From UHGV virus genome UHGV-0242051: a stretch of DNA of 20,023 nucleotides, one strand, 5' to 3'. The stretch comes from a virus. Position 1 is the stretch's first letter; the number at the start of each line of letters is the position of its first letter. The position numbers were made by a program, and so were the translations under genes. Of this stretch, positions 4,711 through 20,023 are shown one piece after another. The notes under the pieces were generated by a model. That model was not told where the DNA came from. It did no database searches and saw nothing but the letters and a program-made list of their open reading frames with translations.

Positions 4711-5064
4711 TCAGCGGCGACGGTTAACGGCAGGCGGCACGCCCCGTCCAAGCCAGAGATGACAGCTTCCGCCATCATCCGGCGAAACCCGATCTACCCA
4801 GAAATTTTCCTCACCGATGGTCAGCGTGTCTCCACGCCGCAGCTGCCGCACCTCATCAGTCCGGACAAACAGGGACGGGCTGGAGCCTTCAACGCGCACG
4901 CCCTGTCCGGCATAGCTGATATTTTCAGGGTCATCAAAAACACCACGTATCACCGCACCGGACTGCTCACCGGATGTAATGGTTGCTGACGTTCCCATGT
5001 ACCCGCGTATCGTTTCATCGGCGCGGGCAATGGCAGCATCGAACAGGTTATCGAAATCAGCCAC
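4711..5064 (-). CDS. FII: Head-tail connector protein FII
   Basis: 117-aa ORF MADFDNLFDAAIARADETIRGYMG... matches remembered lambda gpFII. Confidence 0.95.
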   Translation of the reverse strand: MADFDNLFDAAIARADETIRGYMGTSATITSGEQSGAVIRGVFDDPENISYAGQGVRVEGSSPSLFVRTDEVRQLRRGDTLTIGEENFWVDRVSPDDGGSCHLWLGRGVPPAVNRRR

Positions 5065-12873: not shown

Positions 12874-13068
12874 ATGTCAACTAAGAACAGAACCCGCAGA
12901 ACAACAACCCGCAACATCCGCTTTCCTAACCAAATGATTGAACAAATTAACATCGCTCTTGAGCAAAAAGGGTCTGGGAATTTCTCAGCCTGGGTCATTG
13001 AAGCCTGCCGTCGGAGACTAACGTCAGAAAAGAGAGCATGTACATCAATCCAAAGTGATGATGAATAA
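12874..13068 (+). CDS. Hypothetical 64-aa protein with a possible ribbon-helix-helix (Arc/CopG-like) DNA-binding fold
   Basis: Track ORF MSTKNRTRRTTTRNIRFPNQMIEQINIALEQKGSGNFSAWVIEACRRRL...; basic N-terminus followed by a strand-helix-helix-like pattern. Opposite strand to late genes, between cos and bor. Weak RBS; fold assignment is a guess. Confidence 0.4.
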   Translation: MSTKNRTRRTTTRNIRFPNQMIEQINIALEQKGSGNFSAWVIEACRRRLTSEKRACTSIQSDDE

Positions 13069-13427
13069 ACATCCCGGTTTCTTCCACCATCGCACCGGAA
13101 AAGCGACTATGAGGGTAACCCTGCGTCTGTCAGCACAGTAAAACCCGGTGTGCATCGTTTTTGATTATTCCCGCACACTCACGCAGAAGGAATTCCCCGT
13201 CGGGCTACGGTCATGGTTAATGCGGGAATACGGCGACGATACAGCGCAGCTAAAAGGGTAATGGACAGAAAGAGCGGTTTATTTCATTCCACAGGATTCT
13301 GAGTGCCCCCCTCCTCCAATAGGCTGAGCATCCACCTATATAGTTTTAATTTTCATCAATCCATTTAACTATCGTTTAATTGTTGTCACATAGGATTCTG
13401 CCGTTTTTAACAATGCAGGATAATAAG

Positions 13428-13721
13428 ATGAAAAAAATGTTGTTTTCTGCCGCTCTGGCAATGCTTATTACAGGATGTGCTCAACAGACGTTTACTGTTG
13501 GAAACAAACCGACAGCAGTAACACCAAAGGAAACCATCACCCATCACTTCTTCGTTTCGGGAATTGGACAGGAGAAAACTGTTGATGCAGCCAAAATTTG
13601 TGGCGGCGCAGAAAATGTTGTTAAAACAGAAACCCAGCAAACATTCGTAAATGGATTGCTCGGTTTTATTACTTTAGGCATTTATACTCCGCTGGAAGCG
13701 CGTGTCTATTGCTCACAATAA
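13428..13721 (+). CDS. bor: Bor outer-membrane lipoprotein (serum-resistance moron)
   Basis: Track ORF 13380..13721 contains MKKMLFSAALAMLITGCAQQTFTV... with lipobox LITGC; 97 aa from Met17; opposite strand to late genes as in lambda. Confidence 0.95.
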   Translation: MKKMLFSAALAMLITGCAQQTFTVGNKPTAVTPKETITHHFFVSGIGQEKTVDAAKICGGAENVVKTETQQTFVNGLLGFITLGIYTPLEARVYCSQ

Positions 13722-13752
13722 TTGCATGAGTTGCCCATCGATATGGGCAGCT

Positions 13753-14214
13753 CTATCTGCACTGCTCATTAATATACTTCTGGGTTCCTTCCAGTTGTTT
13801 TTGCATCGTGATCAGCCTCTCTCTGAGGGTGAAATAATCCCGTTCAGCGGTGTCTGCCAGTCGGGGGGAGGCTGCATTATCCACGCCGGAGGCGGTGGTG
13901 GCTTCACGCACTGACTGACAGACTGCTTTGATGTGCAACCGACGACGACCAGCGGCAACATCATCACGCAGAGCATCATTTTCAGCTTTCGCATCAGCTA
14001 ACTCCTTCGTGTATTTTGCATCGAGCGCAGCAACATCACGCTGACGCATCTGTATGTCAGTAATTGCCGCGTTCGCCAGCGTCAGTTCTCTGGCATTTTT
14101 GTCGCGCTGGGCTTTGTAGGTAATCGCGTTATCGCGGTAATGATTAACAGCCCAAGACAGGCAGACGATGATGCAGATAACCAGAGCGGAGATAATCGCG
14201 GCAACTCTTCTCAC
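13753..14214 (-). CDS. Rz: Spanin, inner-membrane subunit Rz
   Basis: Track ORF 13753..14229; from the internal GTG the product is 153 aa (..[42 protein letters not shown]...), near-identical to remembered lambda Rz; start overlaps the R stop (GTGA). Alternative start at 14229 possible. Confidence 0.88.
13812..13994 (-). CDS. Rz1: Spanin, outer-membrane lipoprotein subunit Rz1 (embedded in +1 frame of Rz)
   Basis: 60-aa [63 protein letters not shown] with lipobox VVGC and proline-rich tail, nested inside Rz. Confidence 0.9.
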
Positions 14215-14744
14215 TGATCTATCCCCCAACAGGCTAATGCGCTTTCCTGGTCACGACGAATAACCTGTCCGTAGCAGTTATTTGAACGTGTGCGGCAATC
14301 ACGCCCACCGTCCTTAATCCACCAGCGAATCGACTCACAGGCACCTTTACGATCACCGGCATTAAGCCGCTTATAAAACGTCGACGGGAAACACTTACCG
14401 GGGCCAATGTTATAGGGGCAAAATGACGCGATACCTGCTTTTTGTGGCTCGGTCAGTGGAACTTTTATATTACGCTCCACCCATGCCAGCGCCTTATCCC
14501 GCTCAATGGCGTTAACCTGGGCGCATTTTTCCTTCGACAGTTTCATGCCCGGAATAACAGGTTTACCATCCACCACCGTGGCACCCCGGCAAATGGTCCA
14601 TATGCCGGAACCATCGCGGTATGCCTTTGTGTGGTTACCCTCTTTTTCGTCCAGAAACTGGTCAAGTATCTGAGGAGCAGACGCGCCTGCGGCAATCAGC
14701 GCCAGAACAGCAGCCGACAGGCCGTATCTGATTTTTACGTTCAT
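14211..14744 (-). CDS. R: Endolysin, T4-lysozyme-type (GH24) with N-terminal SAR/signal-like hydrophobic segment (phage 21 R21-type)
   Basis: 177 aa; N-terminal Gly/Ala-rich hydrophobic stretch ([18 protein letters not shown]) then E35-(8 aa)-D44-(5 aa)-T50 spacing of the T4 lysozyme catalytic triad ([23 protein letters not shown]). Not the lambda transglycosylase R. Confidence 0.88.
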
Positions 14745-14878
14745 GGATATTTATCAGGATTTATCGGTTTCTGAACCCTGGATATGTTAAGCATTCAGCC
14801 CGTCAGTGGTAGGACACTGGCGCTCTGGTTAAGGATTATGGGGGATGCTGGCTGAGCTACCCCATCTGAGGATTTGAT

Positions 14879-15118
14879 ATGCAAAAAGAAGTTTTTATCA
14901 ATATTACAGCTGACTGCTCATCTCCTGCATCAACAGCAAAAGAAATTGAAGCTCTTAAATATATGATTACAGTAATATTTTCCGTATTGGACCAGAATGA
15001 AAAAAATGGAATCATTCATCAATTAAATGAACATGTAAATAATCCATATATCAAAAGCAATCTGGAAATGCTGCTACCAATGAAAGATATTGGAAAACCA
15101 ACTGAAACAAAAGGCTAA
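14879..15118 (+). CDS. Hypothetical 79-aa protein, AT-rich moron ORF of unknown function
   Basis: Track ORF MQKEVFINITADCSSPASTAKEIEALKYMITVIFSVLDQNEKNGIIHQ...; GAGGA Shine-Dalgarno about 7 nt upstream of ATG; markedly AT-rich codon usage versus flanking genes; opposite strand to the lysis genes; terminator-like hairpin downstream. No family recognised. Confidence 0.5.
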   Translation: MQKEVFINITADCSSPASTAKEIEALKYMITVIFSVLDQNEKNGIIHQLNEHVNNPYIKSNLEMLLPMKDIGKPTETKG

Positions 15119-15429
15119 CAACCAGTAATCGAGTTATCTGAACTGTTAATTTTTATGGTATACCGCGCCTCTGAACAGGGGCGCGTTTCTGGCAACAGCT
15201 CGTCCCCTTCACATAACCCGGCAGCAACATCCAGGAAGACCTGTCTGATGCTCCTTCTGGCTGCAGCCTCATAAAACTCCAGCGCGGCACCTTCAACACG
15301 GTCCAGCGAGATGTCCAGGTCAAAAATTTCACCGTCAAAGCGTTTTTTGTCCCGTAACGCTAAAGTTACCGTAACTTTATTCTCAAAATTGCGGATCCCT
15401 TTCACAATCAGTTCATAGTTTTGAGTCAT
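15115..15429 (-). CDS. YdfR-like small protein of unknown function, encoded between holin and endolysin
   Basis: 104-aa track ORF MTQNYELIVKGIRNFENKVTVTLALRDKKRFDGEIFDLD...; position matches the ydfR slot of Qin-type lysis cassettes, from recall. The last ~16 codons are encoded by the AT-rich moron DNA, so the native C-terminus may have been replaced. Confidence 0.6.
   Translation of the reverse strand: MTQNYELIVKGIRNFENKVTVTLALRDKKRFDGEIFDLDISLDRVEGAALEFYEAAARRSIRQVFLDVAAGLCEGDELLPETRPCSEARYTIKINSSDNSITGC
15164..15190 (+). terminator. Possible intrinsic terminator for the 79-aa moron transcript
   Basis: cgcgcc-tctgaaca-ggcgcg stem-loop followed by tttct, about 45 nt after the moron stop. 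It lies inside the 3' coding end of the convergent YdfR-like ORF. Coordinates +/-2. Confidence 0.35.
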
Positions 15430-15433
15430 TGAA

Positions 15434-15649
15434 TTACTCTCCCCGTGCAGCCTTACGCTTATCTTCTTTAATCTTGAAATAAAGGTTTGTCAGGTACGTC
15501 AGCAGGCCAAATACCAGGCTACCCAGCACACCTATTGCCGCCCACTGTGAGGGCGTGACTTTATCGAGCAACTGTAAAAACCAGTACCCGGCACTACCTG
15601 CTGAGGTGCCATAGGCGACACCCGTTGTTAACTTATCCATGGATTTCAT
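15434..15649 (-). CDS. S: Class II holin, phage 21 S21-type pinholin (71-aa antiholin form; 68-aa holin from Met4 at 15640)
   Basis: [71 protein letters not shown]: dual-start motif M-K-S-M, two hydrophobic segments, charged C-terminus; closely resembles remembered S21. Confidence 0.9.
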
Positions 15650-15776
15650 AACCCCACCTCGCAGACAAAGCGGGTGTAAATTAAGGGGATACTACGTATC
15701 GCAATAAAGGCAGAAACGTAACAGATTCGGAGTCAGTGAATAACTCAGGTATTGGGTTATCAGCTAATATCGAGAC

Positions 15777-15810
15777 TCAAAAAATGGAAAAACCCGCTCG
15801 ACGGCGGGTT
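15777..15810 (-). terminator. Intrinsic terminator on the late-transcript strand, about 130 nt upstream of the holin gene
   Basis: Minus strand reads aaacccgc-cgtcga-gcgggttt followed by ttccatttttt. Coordinates +/-2. Confidence 0.5.
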
Positions 15811-16237
15811 TAAGCTGTGTGACGAAGTAACCACTCTTAACAGCATAACCAATTTTTTACGTACGTAAACTACTAAATGATATTTGTGAGAATGCCACCG
15901 AGTGTTCAAAACACCACCACAAATGCATAAGAAAACTTCAACAAATAACCAGTTAATAATTTCCGATGTTATTTTTAGTTTGTTTAAATTAAGCTAAAGA
16001 ATTATAGAGCACTTATAAATAAGTGCCATTAATATAAATTAGCTAATAGATTTATTTTTGTTCAGACAAGAGCCATGAATAGGATTAGATAGAAAAGGTT
16101 CAGATAAAAATAGAGATCTACTTCACAAATTAAATGAGAAACTAAAACTTACATCTTGAAATAATCACATTGATTAGATGAATATTTATCGCGCAGTGAC
16201 ATCATTTTTTAATAAAAGTTCAAAAAAAGGGCGTACA

Positions 16238-17320
16238 ATGAAAAAATTAACAGTGGCAATTTCTGCTGTAGCTGCATCAGTACTGATGGCGATGTCTGCT
16301 CAGGCAGCTGAAATTTATAATAAAGACAGTAACAAGCTGGATCTATACGGGAAAGTTAATGCCAAGCACTACTTCTCCTCTAATGATGCAGATGATGGTG
16401 ATACTACTTATGCCCGTCTTGGCTTCAAAGGTGAAACCCAAATCAACGATCAACTGACTGGTTTCGGTCAGTGGGAATATGAATTCAAAGGCAACCGTGC
16501 TGAATCTCAAGGTTCTTCCAAAGACAAAACCCGTCTTGCATTTGCAGGCCTGAAATTTGGTGATTACGGCTCAATCGATTACGGCCGTAACTACGGTGTA
16601 GCATACGACATCGGTGCGTGGACTGACGTTCTGCCAGAATTCGGTGGTGATACCTGGACCCAAACAGATGTGTTCATGACTGGTCGCACTACTGGTGTTG
16701 CAACTTATCGTAACAACGACTTCTTTGGTCTGGTCGATGGCCTGAACTTTGCTGCTCAGTATCAGGGTAAAAATGACCGCACTGACGTAACTGAAGCCAA
16801 TGGTGATGGTTTCGGTTTCTCCACTACTTATGAGTATGAAGGATTCGGCGTGGGTGCAACCTATGCTAAATCAGATCGCACTGACGGTCAGGTCGCCTAT
16901 GGTAAGAGCAAATTCAATGCCTCCGGCAAAAATGCGGAAGTATGGGCTGCAGGCCTGAAATATGATGCGAACAATATCTATCTGGCTACCACATATTCTG
17001 AAACTCAGAATATGACCGTTTTTGGTAATAACCATATTGCAAACAAAGCACAAAACTTTGAAGCAGTAGCACAATATCAGTTTGACTTCGGTCTGCGTCC
17101 ATCTGTTGCTTACCTTCAGTCAAAAGGTAAAGACCTTGGTGTTCATGGTGACCGAGACTTAGTCAAGTATGTCGATGTCGGTGCTACTTACTACTTTAAT
17201 AAAAACATGTCCACTTTTGTTGATTACAAAATCAACTTAATTGACGATAGTAAGTTTACCAAAACAGCTGGTATTGATACCGACGACATCGTCGCTGTAG
17301 GTCTGGTTTATCAGTTCTAA
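16238..17320 (+). CDS. nmpC: General porin of the OmpC/OmpF family (NmpC/Lc-type phage-borne porin), with signal peptide
   Basis: Track ORF 16178..17320; from Met21 [23 protein letters not shown]|[16 protein letters not shown]..., 360 aa ending VAVGLVYQF (C-terminal Phe beta-barrel signature); closely resembles remembered NmpC/OmpC. Same slot between Q and holin as in DLP12/PA-2. Confidence 0.95.
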
Positions 17321-17338
17321 TCTGACTTACGAAAAAGA

Positions 17339-17375
17339 TATGTTGCGGGAGGCTTTGCCTCCGCAACATATAAGT
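17339..17375 (-). terminator. Intrinsic terminator on the late-transcript strand downstream of Q (candidate tR')
   Basis: Minus strand: near-perfect 15-bp stem (atatgttgcggaggc / gcctcccgcaacatat, loop caaa) immediately followed by cttttt. Coordinates +/-2. Confidence 0.5.
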
Positions 17376-17457
17376 GGAGCCCTCAAGCCACTTCCTTTAG
17401 AAGCACTACCTTGCTTCTTACTATATAAACCTTCTGTTATATATTACCCTTTATTTT

Positions 17458-17482
17458 GGGGGCGTTTCCACGCCCCATTTTT
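17458..17482 (+). terminator. Intrinsic terminator on plus strand (end of nmpC transcription unit, shielding Q from antisense read-through)
   Basis: gggggcg-tttcca-cgcccc followed by atttttaa on plus strand, about 27 nt past the Q stop. Coordinates +/-2. Confidence 0.5.
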
Positions 17483-17508
17483 AATAACTTTTAGTAAACA
17501 ATTGCATA

Positions 17509-17892
17509 TCAATTAGAATTATTAGCAACGATATCCATATCTAACCGGATATCTAATGCCATTAACATCCCTTCAATTATGCCCTCAGCCTTCTGTAACC
17601 TTTTCCCGATATAACCATCCGAGCAGCAATGCTTACTTGCCAGTGACATGAATGTCATACCACATACATAATAATCTACTAATAAATCGTGTAAATCGCT
17701 GTTGTTCTTTTTCAGACGGGCCATGCACCCGCAAATGATCATCGCGTCATCGTCACAACATTGCGGGCGAGATTTTACTTTTGAAGGAATTAATCCCTTA
17801 AAACCGGCGGCAATGGACGACCAGGTCACATCTTCATGATTATTAGCCGCCCACGCACCCCAACGCTCAAGAACCATCTGAATATCACGCAT
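17509..17892 (-). CDS. quuD: Late-gene antiterminator, Q family (QuuD/phage-82-type, not lambda Q)
   Basis: Track ORF 17509..17907 begins at a TTG; likely real start is the ATG at residue 6 ([24 protein letters not shown]...), giving 127 aa; cysteine-rich region [16 protein letters not shown] suggests zinc binding; position between rusA/ylcG and the lysis genes. Confidence 0.8.
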
Positions 17893-17977
17893 CAACTTAC
17901 TCCACAAAAATCAGACCAGAACGCCAATTACAAGCAAAAATCAACAAAACAGTATTAGTTGATTGTTATCTCTGACT

Positions 17978-18118
17978 TCATACTCCTGTTCCTGTCAGGG
18001 TTTTGGCGTAATTCTTCAGTATTCGGTAATCGGTCAAAACAGAACCGAGGAAACGATATAAGCGCAGACGCCCCCAGCGATGGCGAAGAAGTTCTGCCAT
18101 ATTAAACTCAAACATCAT
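17978..18118 (-). CDS. ylcG: Small ORF (about 46 aa) in the ylcG position between rusA and Q
   Basis: ATG overlapping the rusA stop (ATGA); hand translation [23 protein letters not shown]... Below the track's length cut-off. My hand copy of this stretch was inconsistent by one nucleotide, so end and C-terminal sequence are uncertain. Confidence 0.5.
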
Positions 18119-18477
18119 TCATTCCCCATTTCGGTGATGGTCAGTTCCAGCCTCCCACCTTTGGTAACAGGCATCTTCACAACGCGGTAATCAACGACCT
18201 GAGCATCATCCAGCCAGAAACCTGCTTTAGTGAGTGCGTCAAAAGCGGCTTTTTGCAGATTATCCAGGTCACGGCGACGGCGATCCGGCATGTGGCACTC
18301 AATGCGGATTTTCACAGGCATAGCCAGGCCGATATCCAGCATTGCGTTTTTAATGATTCGGGCGACGTTATCGCGGTATGCCTGCCCCTCTGCGCTGACG
18401 TGCGTGCGCCCGCGATTATGGCGGTAATAGCGATTATTGCTCGGAGGCCAGGGTAATGTGATGCTGTAGGTATTCAC
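18115..18477 (-). CDS. rusA: Holliday junction resolvase RusA
   Basis: 120-aa ORF (GTG start) [94 protein letters not shown]... matches remembered RusA. Confidence 0.95.
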
Positions 18478-18600
18478 GCCTTAATAACCCCCTCTTTCAG
18501 CCACATAACCTGTGTTCTCGCCATACCTTCCAGCGCGCATTCTTTTGCATATGCAGCATCGACTTGCTTGGCATGCCCTTTACCGGCAATCTTCTGTATG
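18474..18600 (-). pseudogene. 3' remnant of a ybcO-like gene (about 41 codons), N-terminal part missing
   Basis: Minus-strand frame reads ...[30 protein letters not shown] then TGA overlapping the rusA GTG, matching the remembered C-terminus of DLP12 YbcO; an in-frame TAG sits just upstream and the sequence above about 18600 is unrelated. Identification is from recall only. Confidence 0.5.
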
Positions 18601-18683
18601 CGCTAAACCTAGATAGAATCCACTCTGTGCACATTGAAGCCCGCTCTATGCTTTCTTTCAGGTATTGAAGGGATTGAGATGGG

Positions 18684-19031
18684 CTAAGCATTATTGGCCT
18701 CCTGCATCAGGAGAAAGACAATCATGGCGGCGCGGAGAGGTCTGGTATCAAATATTGGGCTTACGCCTTTTGCATCCACACACCATTCAGTTAACTGGTC
18801 TAAGATAGAAATCCTGTATTTCTCAATAATCGGCCATGAAGCGCTCGGATCATTGCAGTAGTCAGGCAAATGATTTAATGGCTCAAAAGTTGTATCAGCA
18901 TTTCCGTAATACCATTTGTTGGTGTTATTCCCTGATGTTTCCGGTTTACTTGCCCAAAGGCCTTTAAAAATTATGTCTCCTACCATTCTGTTAATTTCAA
19001 AATCACTTAACTGTGAATAATCCATTGTCAT
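18684..19031 (-). CDS. Hypothetical nin-region protein, about 115 aa
   Basis: Track ORF 18684..19067; likely start is the ATG overlapping the ninE stop (ATGA), giving [89 protein letters not shown]... No family recognised. Confidence 0.6.
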
Positions 19032-19204
19032 TTCCTCGCACGATATCTTAGCCACCGGATATCCCACAGGTGGGCTGTGTAATTGAAGGTTTTTACGTCA
19101 GATTCTTTTGGGATTAGCTTGCGTTTATTTCTGGAGCGTTTCGTTGGAAGGTATTTGCAGTTTTCGCAGATTATGTCGGTGATGCTTCGTCGCTGTCGTC
19201 TCAT
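19028..19204 (-). CDS. ninE: NinE-like protein
   Basis: Track ORF 19028..19294; from the internal Met [58 protein letters not shown] (58 aa) resembles remembered NinE; start overlaps the methyltransferase stop. Confidence 0.8.
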
Positions 19205-19728
19205 GCAGCCCTCCTGACGCCCTGCCCGATCGCCATCAATGCCGCTTTGGATACGGTAGTAAACATCCGTCGAGGACTGATGAACGGTCGCCAAATCAGC
19301 AGCATGGAGCCTTTGCTGTTTCCCTTCTTCTCCAGCCCTGTCGATGGTTCGATAAAATTAATCCGTCCATCAGTGATAATACGAACTTCGTCAACACTCT
19401 CCAGAGCCTTGCTGAACCATCCGACAGACATATCCTCTGGCACAAGCATCACTACCGTCTGTCGCTGTTGTATACACTGCTCAGCGGCTTTTTCCACCCA
19501 CGGCCTGATATTGCTGTACGGTGGGTTATTCCAGATTGCACCGTGGCTTACCCACTCAGAATTGAGCGCGTCGTCGTCCTCAGTTAGCCAGTGAGCGCAC
19601 AGAGCATTTTTGTCGCTCGCTGCCGAATCCAGCCAGAATCCAAACTCAATATCCAGTGCATCAAAAAGCCAAAGCGGCGTTTGCCAGCAGTCCTTGTCGT
19701 GTGCTGGCGTATTTGATTTGATAGTCAT
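19201..19728 (-). CDS. Phage Dam-type DNA N6-adenine methyltransferase
   Basis: Track ORF 19201..19788; likely start Met21 ([30 protein letters not shown]...) preceded by GGGGAGA about 9 nt upstream; catalytic motif IV NPPY ([10 protein letters not shown]); 175 aa. Confidence 0.85.
19373..19476. repeat. Arm 1 of a 104-bp inverted repeat (inside the methyltransferase gene, codons about 105-139)
   Basis: Exact reverse complement of 19817..19920 by hand comparison; inner end falls in TGTATACA. Confidence 0.85.
19618..19721. repeat. Copy 1 of a 104-bp (or longer) direct repeat (methyltransferase 5' coding segment)
   Basis: Identical to 19920..20023 by hand comparison (cgctgccgaatccagccagaatccaaactcaat...gtatttgatttga). 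Confidence 0.85.
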
Positions 19729-19816
19729 GCAGCCCGATCTCCCCATCGCGCTTTCCATTCGAGAGCCAGTCGCGCTTCGTCTGACCACTTAACGCCACGC
19801 TCTGTACCGAATGCCT

Positions 19817-19920
19817 TGTATACAACAGCGACAGACGGTAGTGATGCTTGTGCCAGAGGATATGTCTGTCGGATGGTTCAGCAAGGCTCTGGAGAGTGTT
19901 GACGAAGTTCGTATTATCAC
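19817..19920. repeat. Arm 2 of the 104-bp inverted repeat (inverted copy of the internal methyltransferase segment, upstream of the gene)
   Basis: Plus strand here encodes [35 protein letters not shown], identical to methyltransferase residues, and is the exact reverse complement of 19373..19476. Confidence 0.85.
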
Positions 19921-20023
19921 GCTGCCGAATCCAGCCAGAATCCAAACTCAATATCCAGTGCATCAAAAAGCCAAAGCGGCGTTTGCCAGCAGTCCTTGTC
20001 GTGTGCTGGCGTATTTGATTTGA
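19920..20023. repeat. Copy 2 of the direct repeat, abutting inverted-repeat arm 2 with 1-nt overlap and running to the window edge
   Basis: Identical to 19618..19721; true extent unknown because the window ends. Confidence 0.85.

Follow-up and report, generated by a model that had tools for sequence, protein, structure and literature searches.

A putative 933W-type late promoter unit between the porin and holin genes of the virus genome UHGV-0242051

The Q-porin-holin locus and its probable late promoter unit

The virus genome UHGV-0242051, of which one whole stretch of 20,023 nucleotides (the window) was analyzed, carries a lambdoid late region on its minus strand, in which genes for Dam methylase, NinX, and RusA are followed by the gene for the antiterminator Q and, after a gap, by genes for an S21-type holin, a DUF1327 protein, a lysozyme, and Rz. 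An intact porin open reading frame (ORF), oriented opposite to the phage late genes, occupies the gap. The elements in question are the late promoter pR', which Q would control, and its terminator tR'. Homology to the unit annotated in the Shiga toxin (Stx) phage 933W and conservation across relatives place pR' just upstream of the hairpin that precedes the holin gene (hairpin 2), so that late transcription need not cross the porin gene; the full reading, including the parts assigned to Q, to two hairpins, and to a porin cassette, is given a probability of about 85%. The genes and the elements of the unit are as follows.

17509-17907, minus strand: antiterminator Q of the QuuD/Q933W type, 132 aa (Pfam PF06530)
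16238-17320, plus strand: porin gene, lc/nmpC/OmpD-like (Pfam Porin_1, E 1.9e-151)
15869-15842, minus strand: putative pR' promoter, -35 TTTACG, 16-bp spacer, -10 TATGCT, orthologous to 933W pR'
15856-15869, minus strand: 14-bp perfect palindrome TTTACGTACGTAAA, whose first six bases are the pR' -35 hexamer
15842-15847, minus strand: pR' -10 hexamer TATGCT, 16 bp from the -35
15819-15840, minus strand: conserved start region TTAAGAGT, holding AAGAGT, the predicted start, and the leader repeat
15838-15833, minus strand: second -10-like hexamer, AAGAGT, within the conserved start region
15834-15819, minus strand: leader inverted repeat GTGGTTACTTCGTCAC, a small stem between the start and hairpin 2
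15779-15811, minus strand: hairpin 2 with its U-run, the putative tR' of this phage, from terminator scan, fold, positional conservation, and 933W orthology
15434-15649, minus strand: S21-type holin (essD), first late gene (Pfam PF04971, E 2e-35)

Q belongs to the family PF06530, aligning with profile positions 1-118 of 118 (E 7.7e-54); it is 81% identical to Q933W over residues 5-125 and reaches 36 bits against Q21 in PDB. The 2.5-kb segment from Q through the porin to the holin is 99-100% identical to several temperate Escherichia phages, and most of it is found in ~2,390 of 5,426 complete Escherichia coli genomes (~44%), where the genes are called quuD, porin/ompC, and essD. Porin and essD/holin annotations are likewise present in the matching phage and E. 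coli records. The locus follows the known PA-2/DLP12 arrangement and falls within the 933W-type Q/pR'/terminator class as an ordinary member.

A sensitive DNA search with a 111-nt query spanning the unit aligned window positions 15872-15788 with positions 20663-20746 of phage 933W (~78% identity over 85 nt) and also matched the region just after Q in many Stx phages at ~78% identity. The 933W record (NC_000924) annotates these bases as the putative late promoter pR', with a -35 of TTTACG and a -10 of TATCAT, followed by a rho-independent terminator; all three annotated elements align with conserved bases of the window, which makes the segment a homologue of the pR'(qut)-terminator unit of the 933W/H-19B type. 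The succession of Q (17907-17509), unit (15869-15779), and holin (15649-15434), all on the minus strand, is also that of a 933W-type unit. The immediate adjacency of Q and unit is lost: 1,639 nt separate the Q stop codon from the palindrome here, whereas the unit lies inside the end of Q in 933W. This separation is a difference of context, not of the unit itself. The promoter sits at the holin-proximal edge of the gap, outside the AT-rich DNA upstream of the porin gene.

Conservation was followed in loci fetched from other species by Q-protein similarity alone, most of them lacking the porin gene and 19 of them informative. All 19 contain exactly one copy of the palindrome, downstream of Q and on the Q strand. 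In porin-less loci, 3-50 nt (137 nt in one Citrobacter locus) separate it from the Q stop codon, whereas in porin-carrying ones it directly precedes the holin gene; porin-less relatives with this Q come from Shigella, Citrobacter, Pantoea, Providencia, Xenorhabdus, and phage 933W. A motif-first search yielded 120 viral contigs containing the 15-mer, 98 of which have a window-type Q upstream on the same strand (in 74 a porin is inserted between Q and the motif, in 15 the two are adjacent, and in 9 the insert is of another kind); the other 22 comprise 16 contigs too short upstream, 5 chance matches, and 1 that could not be assigned. Among 32 distinct variants, the palindrome arms, the TAnnnT pattern of the -10 (T, A, and final T), and the TAAnnnT pattern of the start region are invariant, and a hairpin with a T-run is kept 40-75 nt downstream, with many differing terminator stems. 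In porin-less loci, the segment opens with TTTACG(TA/AT)CGTAAA and, after eight variable positions, continues with TAnnnT and G(T/A)TAAGAGTG; next come a small inverted repeat, the bases AGCTTA, and finally a G+C-rich hairpin with its T-run. The -10 of the Xenorhabdus and Providencia variants is preceded by TG (extended -10).

The palindrome TTTACGTACGTAAA occurs once in the window, where 0.02 copies are expected by chance, and remains the sole copy when one mismatch is allowed. In Xenorhabdus, Providencia, and 933W, it becomes TTTACGATCGTAAA, in which the central TA is replaced by AT and the palindrome is retained. Its conservation is far better than a -35 hexamer requires, and the 14-bp palindrome overlapping the -35 is a candidate Q-binding element. 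A second Q allele, that of the phage 1720a-02 type, is 51% identical to the Q of the window and differs mainly in its C-terminal half, which corresponds to the DNA-binding part in Q21 (PMC6606751). Loci of the 1720a-02 type share the -10 pattern, start region, leader, and terminator, but carry CGCGGTCCGCA, an inverted repeat of the form GCGG-T-CCGC, in the palindrome's place (L148 1260-1350, L150 860-950, and 120 viral contigs from L151 onward). Allele and element go together throughout: contigs with CGCGGTCCGCA and an upstream Q match have the 1720a-02-type Q in 106 of 106 cases, and contigs with the TTTACG palindrome have the window-type Q in 98 of 98. In most of the CGCGGTCCGCA contigs, inserted DNA of 0.6-1.7 kb separates Q from the element. 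A full-text literature search with the palindrome sequence returned no relevant paper. An inverted-repeat Q site would be a variation within the Q family. A broader proposal, that TTTACG(TA/AT)CGTAAA is the head-to-head Q-binding site of the Q933W/QuuD subfamily, that the Q-stop junction is a preferred docking point for lysogenic-conversion cargo outside the late transcript, and that the Q dependence of DLP12 runs through this unit and not through a sigma-E promoter discussed below, is tentative, with slightly less than an even chance of holding.

The start of the late transcript can be transferred from mapped relatives. In the Stx phages of strain O157 Sakai, the distance from the PR' start, located by differential RNA sequencing (dRNA-seq), to the tR' 3' end, located by Term-seq, is 258 nt (PMC7547250); the transfer to the window was made from 933W via this distance, since the Sakai genome record version has shifted coordinates. 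Counting 258 nt back from the T-run of the second 933W terminator (L145 990-995) gives a start ~7 nt after TATCAT, which by homology predicts a start near A15835 in the window, with the holin gene ~186 nt downstream. Hairpin 2 would then span about +25 to +46, with its U-run reaching about +57. Between start and hairpin 2 lies the leader stem (15834-15819), with 4-5 bp; in the alignment of 32 variants, 88% of its cells are paired, and one pair alternates between GC, AU, and GU. At one position, U-G pairs predominate (24 of 32 sequences), favoring an RNA stem over a DNA palindrome. The PA-2 lc record of 1986 gives the leader repeat a CRP-site label (L146 1067-1087), and the 933W record marks part of it as 'qut'.

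Hairpin 2 reads AAACCCGC-CGUCGA-GCGGGUUU as RNA (15811-15790), followed by UUCCAUUUUUUG. It has the form of an intrinsic terminator, with 8 pairs (5 of them G-C) and the U-run UUUUUCCAUUUUUU extending to 15779, was called on the minus strand by the terminator scan, and is the orthologue of the first annotated terminator after pR' in 933W. A hairpin with a T-run is found at its position in more than 30 distinct relatives with many stem sequences (e.g., CCCGCC/GGCGGG, CCUUGC/GCAAGG, and GCCUCAC/GUGGGGC, each followed by a T-run), and it is this positional conservation that argues for hairpin 2 being real. In the alignment, 78.6% of the terminator pairs are paired compared with 33-62% in slid controls, and six pairs are changed on both sides. 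Because one-base register shifts blur pair counts in the MAFFT alignment, each sequence was also folded individually, giving -10 to -19 kcal/mol for most variants; the simple T-run finder used there misplaced a few Xenorhabdus cases. In many prophages (L024-type loci) and in PA-2 (L146 ~1040-1075), a G-to-T change is found in the 3' arm of hairpin 2 (GCTGG); for these variants, an alternative stem using the conserved upstream CAGCTT, with the same T-run after it, is predicted.

The porin cassette and the Q-porin spacer

The porin gene and its surroundings form a cassette inserted between Q and the late promoter unit. Its features are listed below, with strand where one applies.

~15873-17532: porin cassette, ~1.66 kb, comprising the porin gene, its AT-rich upstream region, a four-hairpin spacer, and a replaced Q tail
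17331-17371, minus strand: hairpin 1 with its U-run, the putative intrinsic terminator of transcripts reading out of Q, not tR'
17418-17399 and 17391-17374: two small conserved stem-loops with compensatory changes, overlapping the 3' regions of Q and porin
17459-17482, plus strand: putative intrinsic terminator GGGGCGTTTCCACGCCCC plus ATTTTT, from scan and fold, conserved in all porin-carrying loci

At the right edge, DNA similarity to other Q alleles stops at ~17533, ~8 codons before the Q stop codon, and the last ~8 Q codons (17532-17509) are specific to porin-carrying variants. At the left edge, similarity to 933W resumes at 15872, 3 nt before the palindrome. In porin-less relatives, the distance from the Q stop codon to the unit is about 50 nt at most. 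The porin gene is present in some and missing in other, otherwise syntenic phages and brings its own AT-rich upstream region and putative plus-strand terminator, as a moron does. In K-12, the promoter of the homologous nmpC gene lies within 199-210 bp of the gene start (PMC11677980), and the counterpart of the porin-upstream region is listed as a 'promoter island' in the H-NS-binding section of a survey (PMC3661553). Window positions 15909-16278 also match unannotated E. coli DNA at 81-85% identity, there without flanking Q or holin.

The same junction accommodates other cargo: a 274-aa Rce1-like membrane protein of the CAAX protease family, a 197-aa DnaD_N protein, and an Arc-like repressor with a P22-type antirepressor (contigs L028, L053, L072, and L037), while contig L069 combines the porin with an IS5 and a tandem repeat. 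Cargo in two of these contigs (L037 and L072) brings its own terminator-like hairpin on the Q strand right after Q. Elsewhere in the window, a 79-aa ORF without a Pfam match lies on the plus strand between the DUF1327 and lysozyme genes (14879-15118) and may be a second small cargo gene.

The 188-nt spacer between Q and porin (17321-17508) contains four consecutive stem-loops, all with compensatory changes among three lineages. Hairpin 1, which begins 18 nt past the porin stop codon, reads AUAUGUUGCGGAGGC-AAA-GCCUCCCGCAACAUAU on the minus strand (17371-17338) and folds with -22.3 kcal/mol (z = -3.5; 1 of 200 shuffles as good). It is followed on the minus strand by CUUUUUCG (17337-17330) with the U-run CUUUUU, whereas the plus strand continues with AAGUGGAG and has no U-run there. 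The 15-bp stem with one bulge and the CUUUUU tract give it the form of an intrinsic terminator on the minus strand; the consensus scanner missed it because of the bulged C. Its stems differ among the three lineages (GCGGAGGC, GAGAAG, and GUGGGAGAU) and all still pair. The plus-strand terminator, absent from the preliminary description, sits between Q and hairpin 1; its RNA reads GGGGCG-UUUC-CACGCCCC, then AUUUUU, with the stem-loop at 17459-17476 folding with -13.8 kcal/mol (z = -3.15). The porin transcript would end here (17459-17482), ~160 nt after its stop codon. Viewed on the plus strand, this ~160-nt porin 3' region ending in a U-tailed terminator has the form of a 3'-UTR-derived small RNA (UTR, untranslated region).

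The two small stem-loops pair differently by lineage, one as AGAAGCA/TGCTTCT or AAGACA/TGTCTT, the other as GTGGCT/AGCCAC, GTGACG/CGTCAC, or GTGATG/CATCAC, and both also form in the fold of the whole spacer. In each direction the stem-loop with a U-run comes last, hairpin 1 when read from Q and 17459-17476 when read from porin; with each terminator last in its own direction, the convergent transcripts would overlap by ~150 nt. Two of the spacer stem-loops are separated by a block, AGGGTAATATATAACAGAAGGTT (17450-17428, minus strand), that is unpaired and does not vary. An Rfam scan of 13000-20023 with E up to 1 found no family, so neither an StxS-like nor another known RNA was recognized in that range.

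Hairpin 1 is present solely where the porin cassette is present. Most likely it ends early-operon transcripts reading past Q. In K-12, an additional terminator placed in the nmpC/quuD spacer had no effect, and its authors took this to mean that existing terminators already keep transcription from running out of quuD (PMC11677980). Only early transcripts getting past hairpin 1 could then be a source of antisense transcription of the porin gene.

The observations of the preliminary description are borne out by these data, and its interpretation is so in part. Its two terminator-like hairpins on the minus strand exist, with coordinates right to within a few bases as judged from folds, U-runs, and conservation, and the region it had called AT-rich is indeed so (27.7% G+C in 15873-16237 compared with 52.5% for the whole window). 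Of its second layout, with pR'/qut between porin and holin and the second terminator as tR', the placement between the two genes and the role of the terminator are supported, with the promoter now placed at 15869-15842 and not within the AT-rich DNA. It had further held that either layout couples porin expression inversely to late-gene expression; the late start lies downstream of the porin gene and the two promoters diverge, so that the supported layout has no such built-in coupling. In the minus-strand promoter prediction that it had proposed, nothing was flagged in the spacer, a site was flagged in the AT-rich DNA, and pR' itself stayed below the threshold. Its suggested comparison with the mapped pR' of phage 21 revealed a similarly compact geometry, with the terminator within ~50 nt.

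Alternative readings, proposed mechanism, and implications

Several observations speak against the placement of pR' at 15869-15842. Its hexamers are weak, each matching the consensus at 4 of 6 positions, and fall below the threshold of the promoter scanner; a scan for the sigma-70 consensus passed over both the Q-proximal spacer and the pR' unit. AAGAGT begins 9 bp after the -10, compared with 11-13 bp for the phage 21 element by annotation, and the lambda pause hexamer, 13 bp after its -10, is farther away as well, which leaves the role of AAGAGT as a pause element uncertain. The fold of hairpin 2 is unexceptional when taken alone (-12 kcal/mol, z -1.65, 13 of 200 shuffles equal). The terminator scan found no second terminator before the holin gene in the window. 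Transcripts that start at the orthologous pR' of the Sakai Stx phages run through the orthologous first hairpin as far as +258 (PMC7547250), so that the first hairpin is either leaky there or gives rise to a short RNA that escaped detection. It may be speculated that hairpin 2 is leaky here too and, as the sole terminator before the holin gene, permits basal expression of the lysis genes; expression of the DLP12 lysis genes in K-12 without induction has been reported (PMC7918800), in line with this speculation.

Two other promoter assignments near the unit were considered, one being rejected and the other set aside. The first is a shifted register of the same segment, in which TAAAAA at the end of the palindrome would be the -10 and TATGCT the pause element. 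It lacks a conserved -35-like hexamer at the required place, and the A-tracts just upstream of TTTACG, the TG extended -10 of some lineages, the 933W annotation, and the 258-nt mapping all agree with the register chosen here. The second is the minus-strand sigma-70 site at 16029-16001 (ATGGCA-17-TATAAT), which was set aside as porin-cassette DNA that is missing in porin-less relatives; the alignment to 933W stops short of it.

An improbable alternative holds that the Q-responsive late promoter is a sigma-E-type promoter, 'essDp', beside the porin start, and that the 933W-like unit is merely a downstream terminator region. A sigma-E-like motif, GAACTT-N16-TCACT, lies at 16221-16195 on the minus strand, antisense-upstream of the porin start codon and inside the porin cassette. 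In the 2015 work of Rueggeberg, a mutated essDp -35 reportedly lowered Q-dependent expression. The DLP12 lysis operon has been described as being under the control of a Q-type antiterminator and RpoE (Rueggeberg et al. 2013, 2015, as cited in PMC7918800), and the primers of the '-121 to +650' reporter in the latter source put its +1 at K-12 locus position 4875, corresponding to about 16189 in the window. As reconstructed from these primers, the published Q-responsive essDp would thus lie ~320 nt further upstream than the pR' favored here, and this too counts against the latter. On the other hand, porin-less phages that share this Q lack the motif and must therefore use the conserved unit, and the motif has no counterpart in the pR' regions of 933W or phage 21. 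At 16190-16225, no conserved Q-binding or pause element was seen. Moreover, the published reporter also contains the 933W-type unit (~+322 to +415), so that its Q dependence does not discriminate between the two promoters.

Marginally less probable still is the idea that the hairpins are not terminators and mainly help to stabilize or process RNA at the 3' ends of porin and Q, or function as sites in the DNA. Hairpin 1, so close to the porin stop codon, could protect the 3' end of the porin mRNA; the four consecutive conserved stem-loops suggest a structured 3' region; the passage of Stx transcripts through the orthologous first hairpin and the CRP-site label in the PA-2 record point the same way. 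Against this stands the finding that both hairpins have U-runs on the minus strand only, kept across lineages. The position and form of hairpin 2 also match those of the phage 21 tR', which its record, citing PMID 1704887, gives as experimentally validated, and the prevalence of U-G at one pair of the leader stem fits RNA pairing. Very improbable, finally, is the lambda-like layout first considered in the preliminary description, in which pR' would fall in the 130-nt stretch from the Q stop codon to hairpin 1, the latter would be tR', and late transcripts would have to traverse the whole porin gene in antisense and then hairpin 2: hairpin 1 is indeed the stronger hairpin (-22 kcal/mol), its location ~140-180 nt after the Q stop codon is superficially reminiscent of lambda pR'-tR', and GTTTAC at ~17496-17491 resembles the first bases of the conserved element, but the promoter scan found no promoter-like site on the minus strand of 17321-17508, a motif search found no copy of the conserved qut-type element in this spacer (with up to one mismatch, its single window copy is at 15856-15869), the spacer travels with the porin cassette and is missing from porin-less relatives of the same Q, and the orthologue of the 933W pR' is located elsewhere. 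GTTTAC-TAAAA after the Q stop codon was also rejected as a decayed copy of the palindrome, as the likeness ends there and is not kept in the L083, L069, and L035 lineage.

With pR' placed upstream of hairpin 2, the following sequence of events can be proposed. Q would be made from the early operon and would bind the 14-bp palindrome overlapping the -35. Transcription would start near 15835, and Q would load onto polymerase held just after the start, with AAGAGT as a candidate pause element; proteins of the Q family load at a binding element beside a promoter-proximal pause (10.1101/651190, PMC6606751). Without Q, transcripts would end at hairpin 2, leaving a leader of ~50-57 nt, while Q-loaded polymerase would pass hairpin 2 into the genes for holin, endolysin, Rz, and the structural proteins. 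Hairpin 1 would stop early-operon transcripts leaving Q and thereby spare the porin gene from antisense transcription, and the porin transcript would probably end at the opposite-strand terminator (17459-17482). This scheme presumes termination at both hairpins in vivo, a Q site in the palindrome, and start and pause positions as predicted from homology.

If correct, the assignment locates the switch for late-gene expression in very common porin-carrying lambdoid prophages, present in ~44% of complete E. coli genomes, and provides exact coordinates for a promoter, start, and terminator where public records have none or a CRP-site label. With the porin gene outside the late operon, its expression in lysogens would be structurally independent of lysis-gene control. 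For the lysis genes of K-12 DLP12, the promoter commonly cited may not be the element used by Q, which bears on work that connects these genes with the formation of biofilms and vesicles. The inverted repeat, which varies with the Q allele, can be tested as a candidate DNA site of the Q protein governing Shiga toxin expression.

Comparison with known systems

One of the closest known counterparts is the unit of 933W and H-19B (NC_000924 20666-20748). It shares the -35 TTTACG within a 14-bp palindrome, the -10 pattern, a TAAGAGTGG start region, the leader repeat, and a near-identical CCCGCC...GCGGG hairpin with a T-run at equal distance. The center of the palindrome is TA in the window and AT in 933W. 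In 933W, the unit overlaps the end of Q and is followed by a second terminator at +258 (StxS RNA), tRNA genes, and stx, whereas in the window Q and the unit are kept apart by the 1.66-kb porin cassette, there is a single terminator before the holin gene, and tRNA genes are absent.

The gene order and orientation of the window, quuD - porin - essD, are those of PA-2 lc (J02580) and DLP12 nmpC; compared with the pR' unit of the window, those of J02580 and of the K-12 prophage DLP12 show 97-99% identity. The K-12 nmpC gene is interrupted by IS5, while the porin gene of the window is intact. PA-2 and many prophages carry the G-to-T change in the hairpin 2 stem, offset by the alternative stem; the window does not. 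The matching records have no annotated promoter here, mostly showing nothing or a hypothetical protein, with the CRP-site label in PA-2 itself.

Phage 21 resembles the window in having a Q of the family PF06530 and a very short leader, and its promoter lies directly after Q, as in the cassette-free relatives of the window: the -35 is found 7 nt after the Q stop codon, the pause element at +2 to +8, and the terminator at +3 to +50. Its Q is only distantly similar (36 bits), tRNA genes and not a porin gene are present, and the cargo lies downstream of tR'. The Q21 element is a direct repeat, ATTGAGCA AATGAGCA, between the -35 and the -10 (PMC6606751), in contrast to the inverted repeat over the -35 in the window.

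The lambda leader (6S RNA) is ~194 nt long, compared with ~55 nt predicted for the window, the lambda Q belongs to another family (PF03589), and there is no sequence similarity between the two regions. Common to lambda and the layout proposed for the window are a late promoter that lies after Q and is constitutively active, termination that leaves a short leader, and read-through to the lysis genes when Q is present (10.1101/651190).

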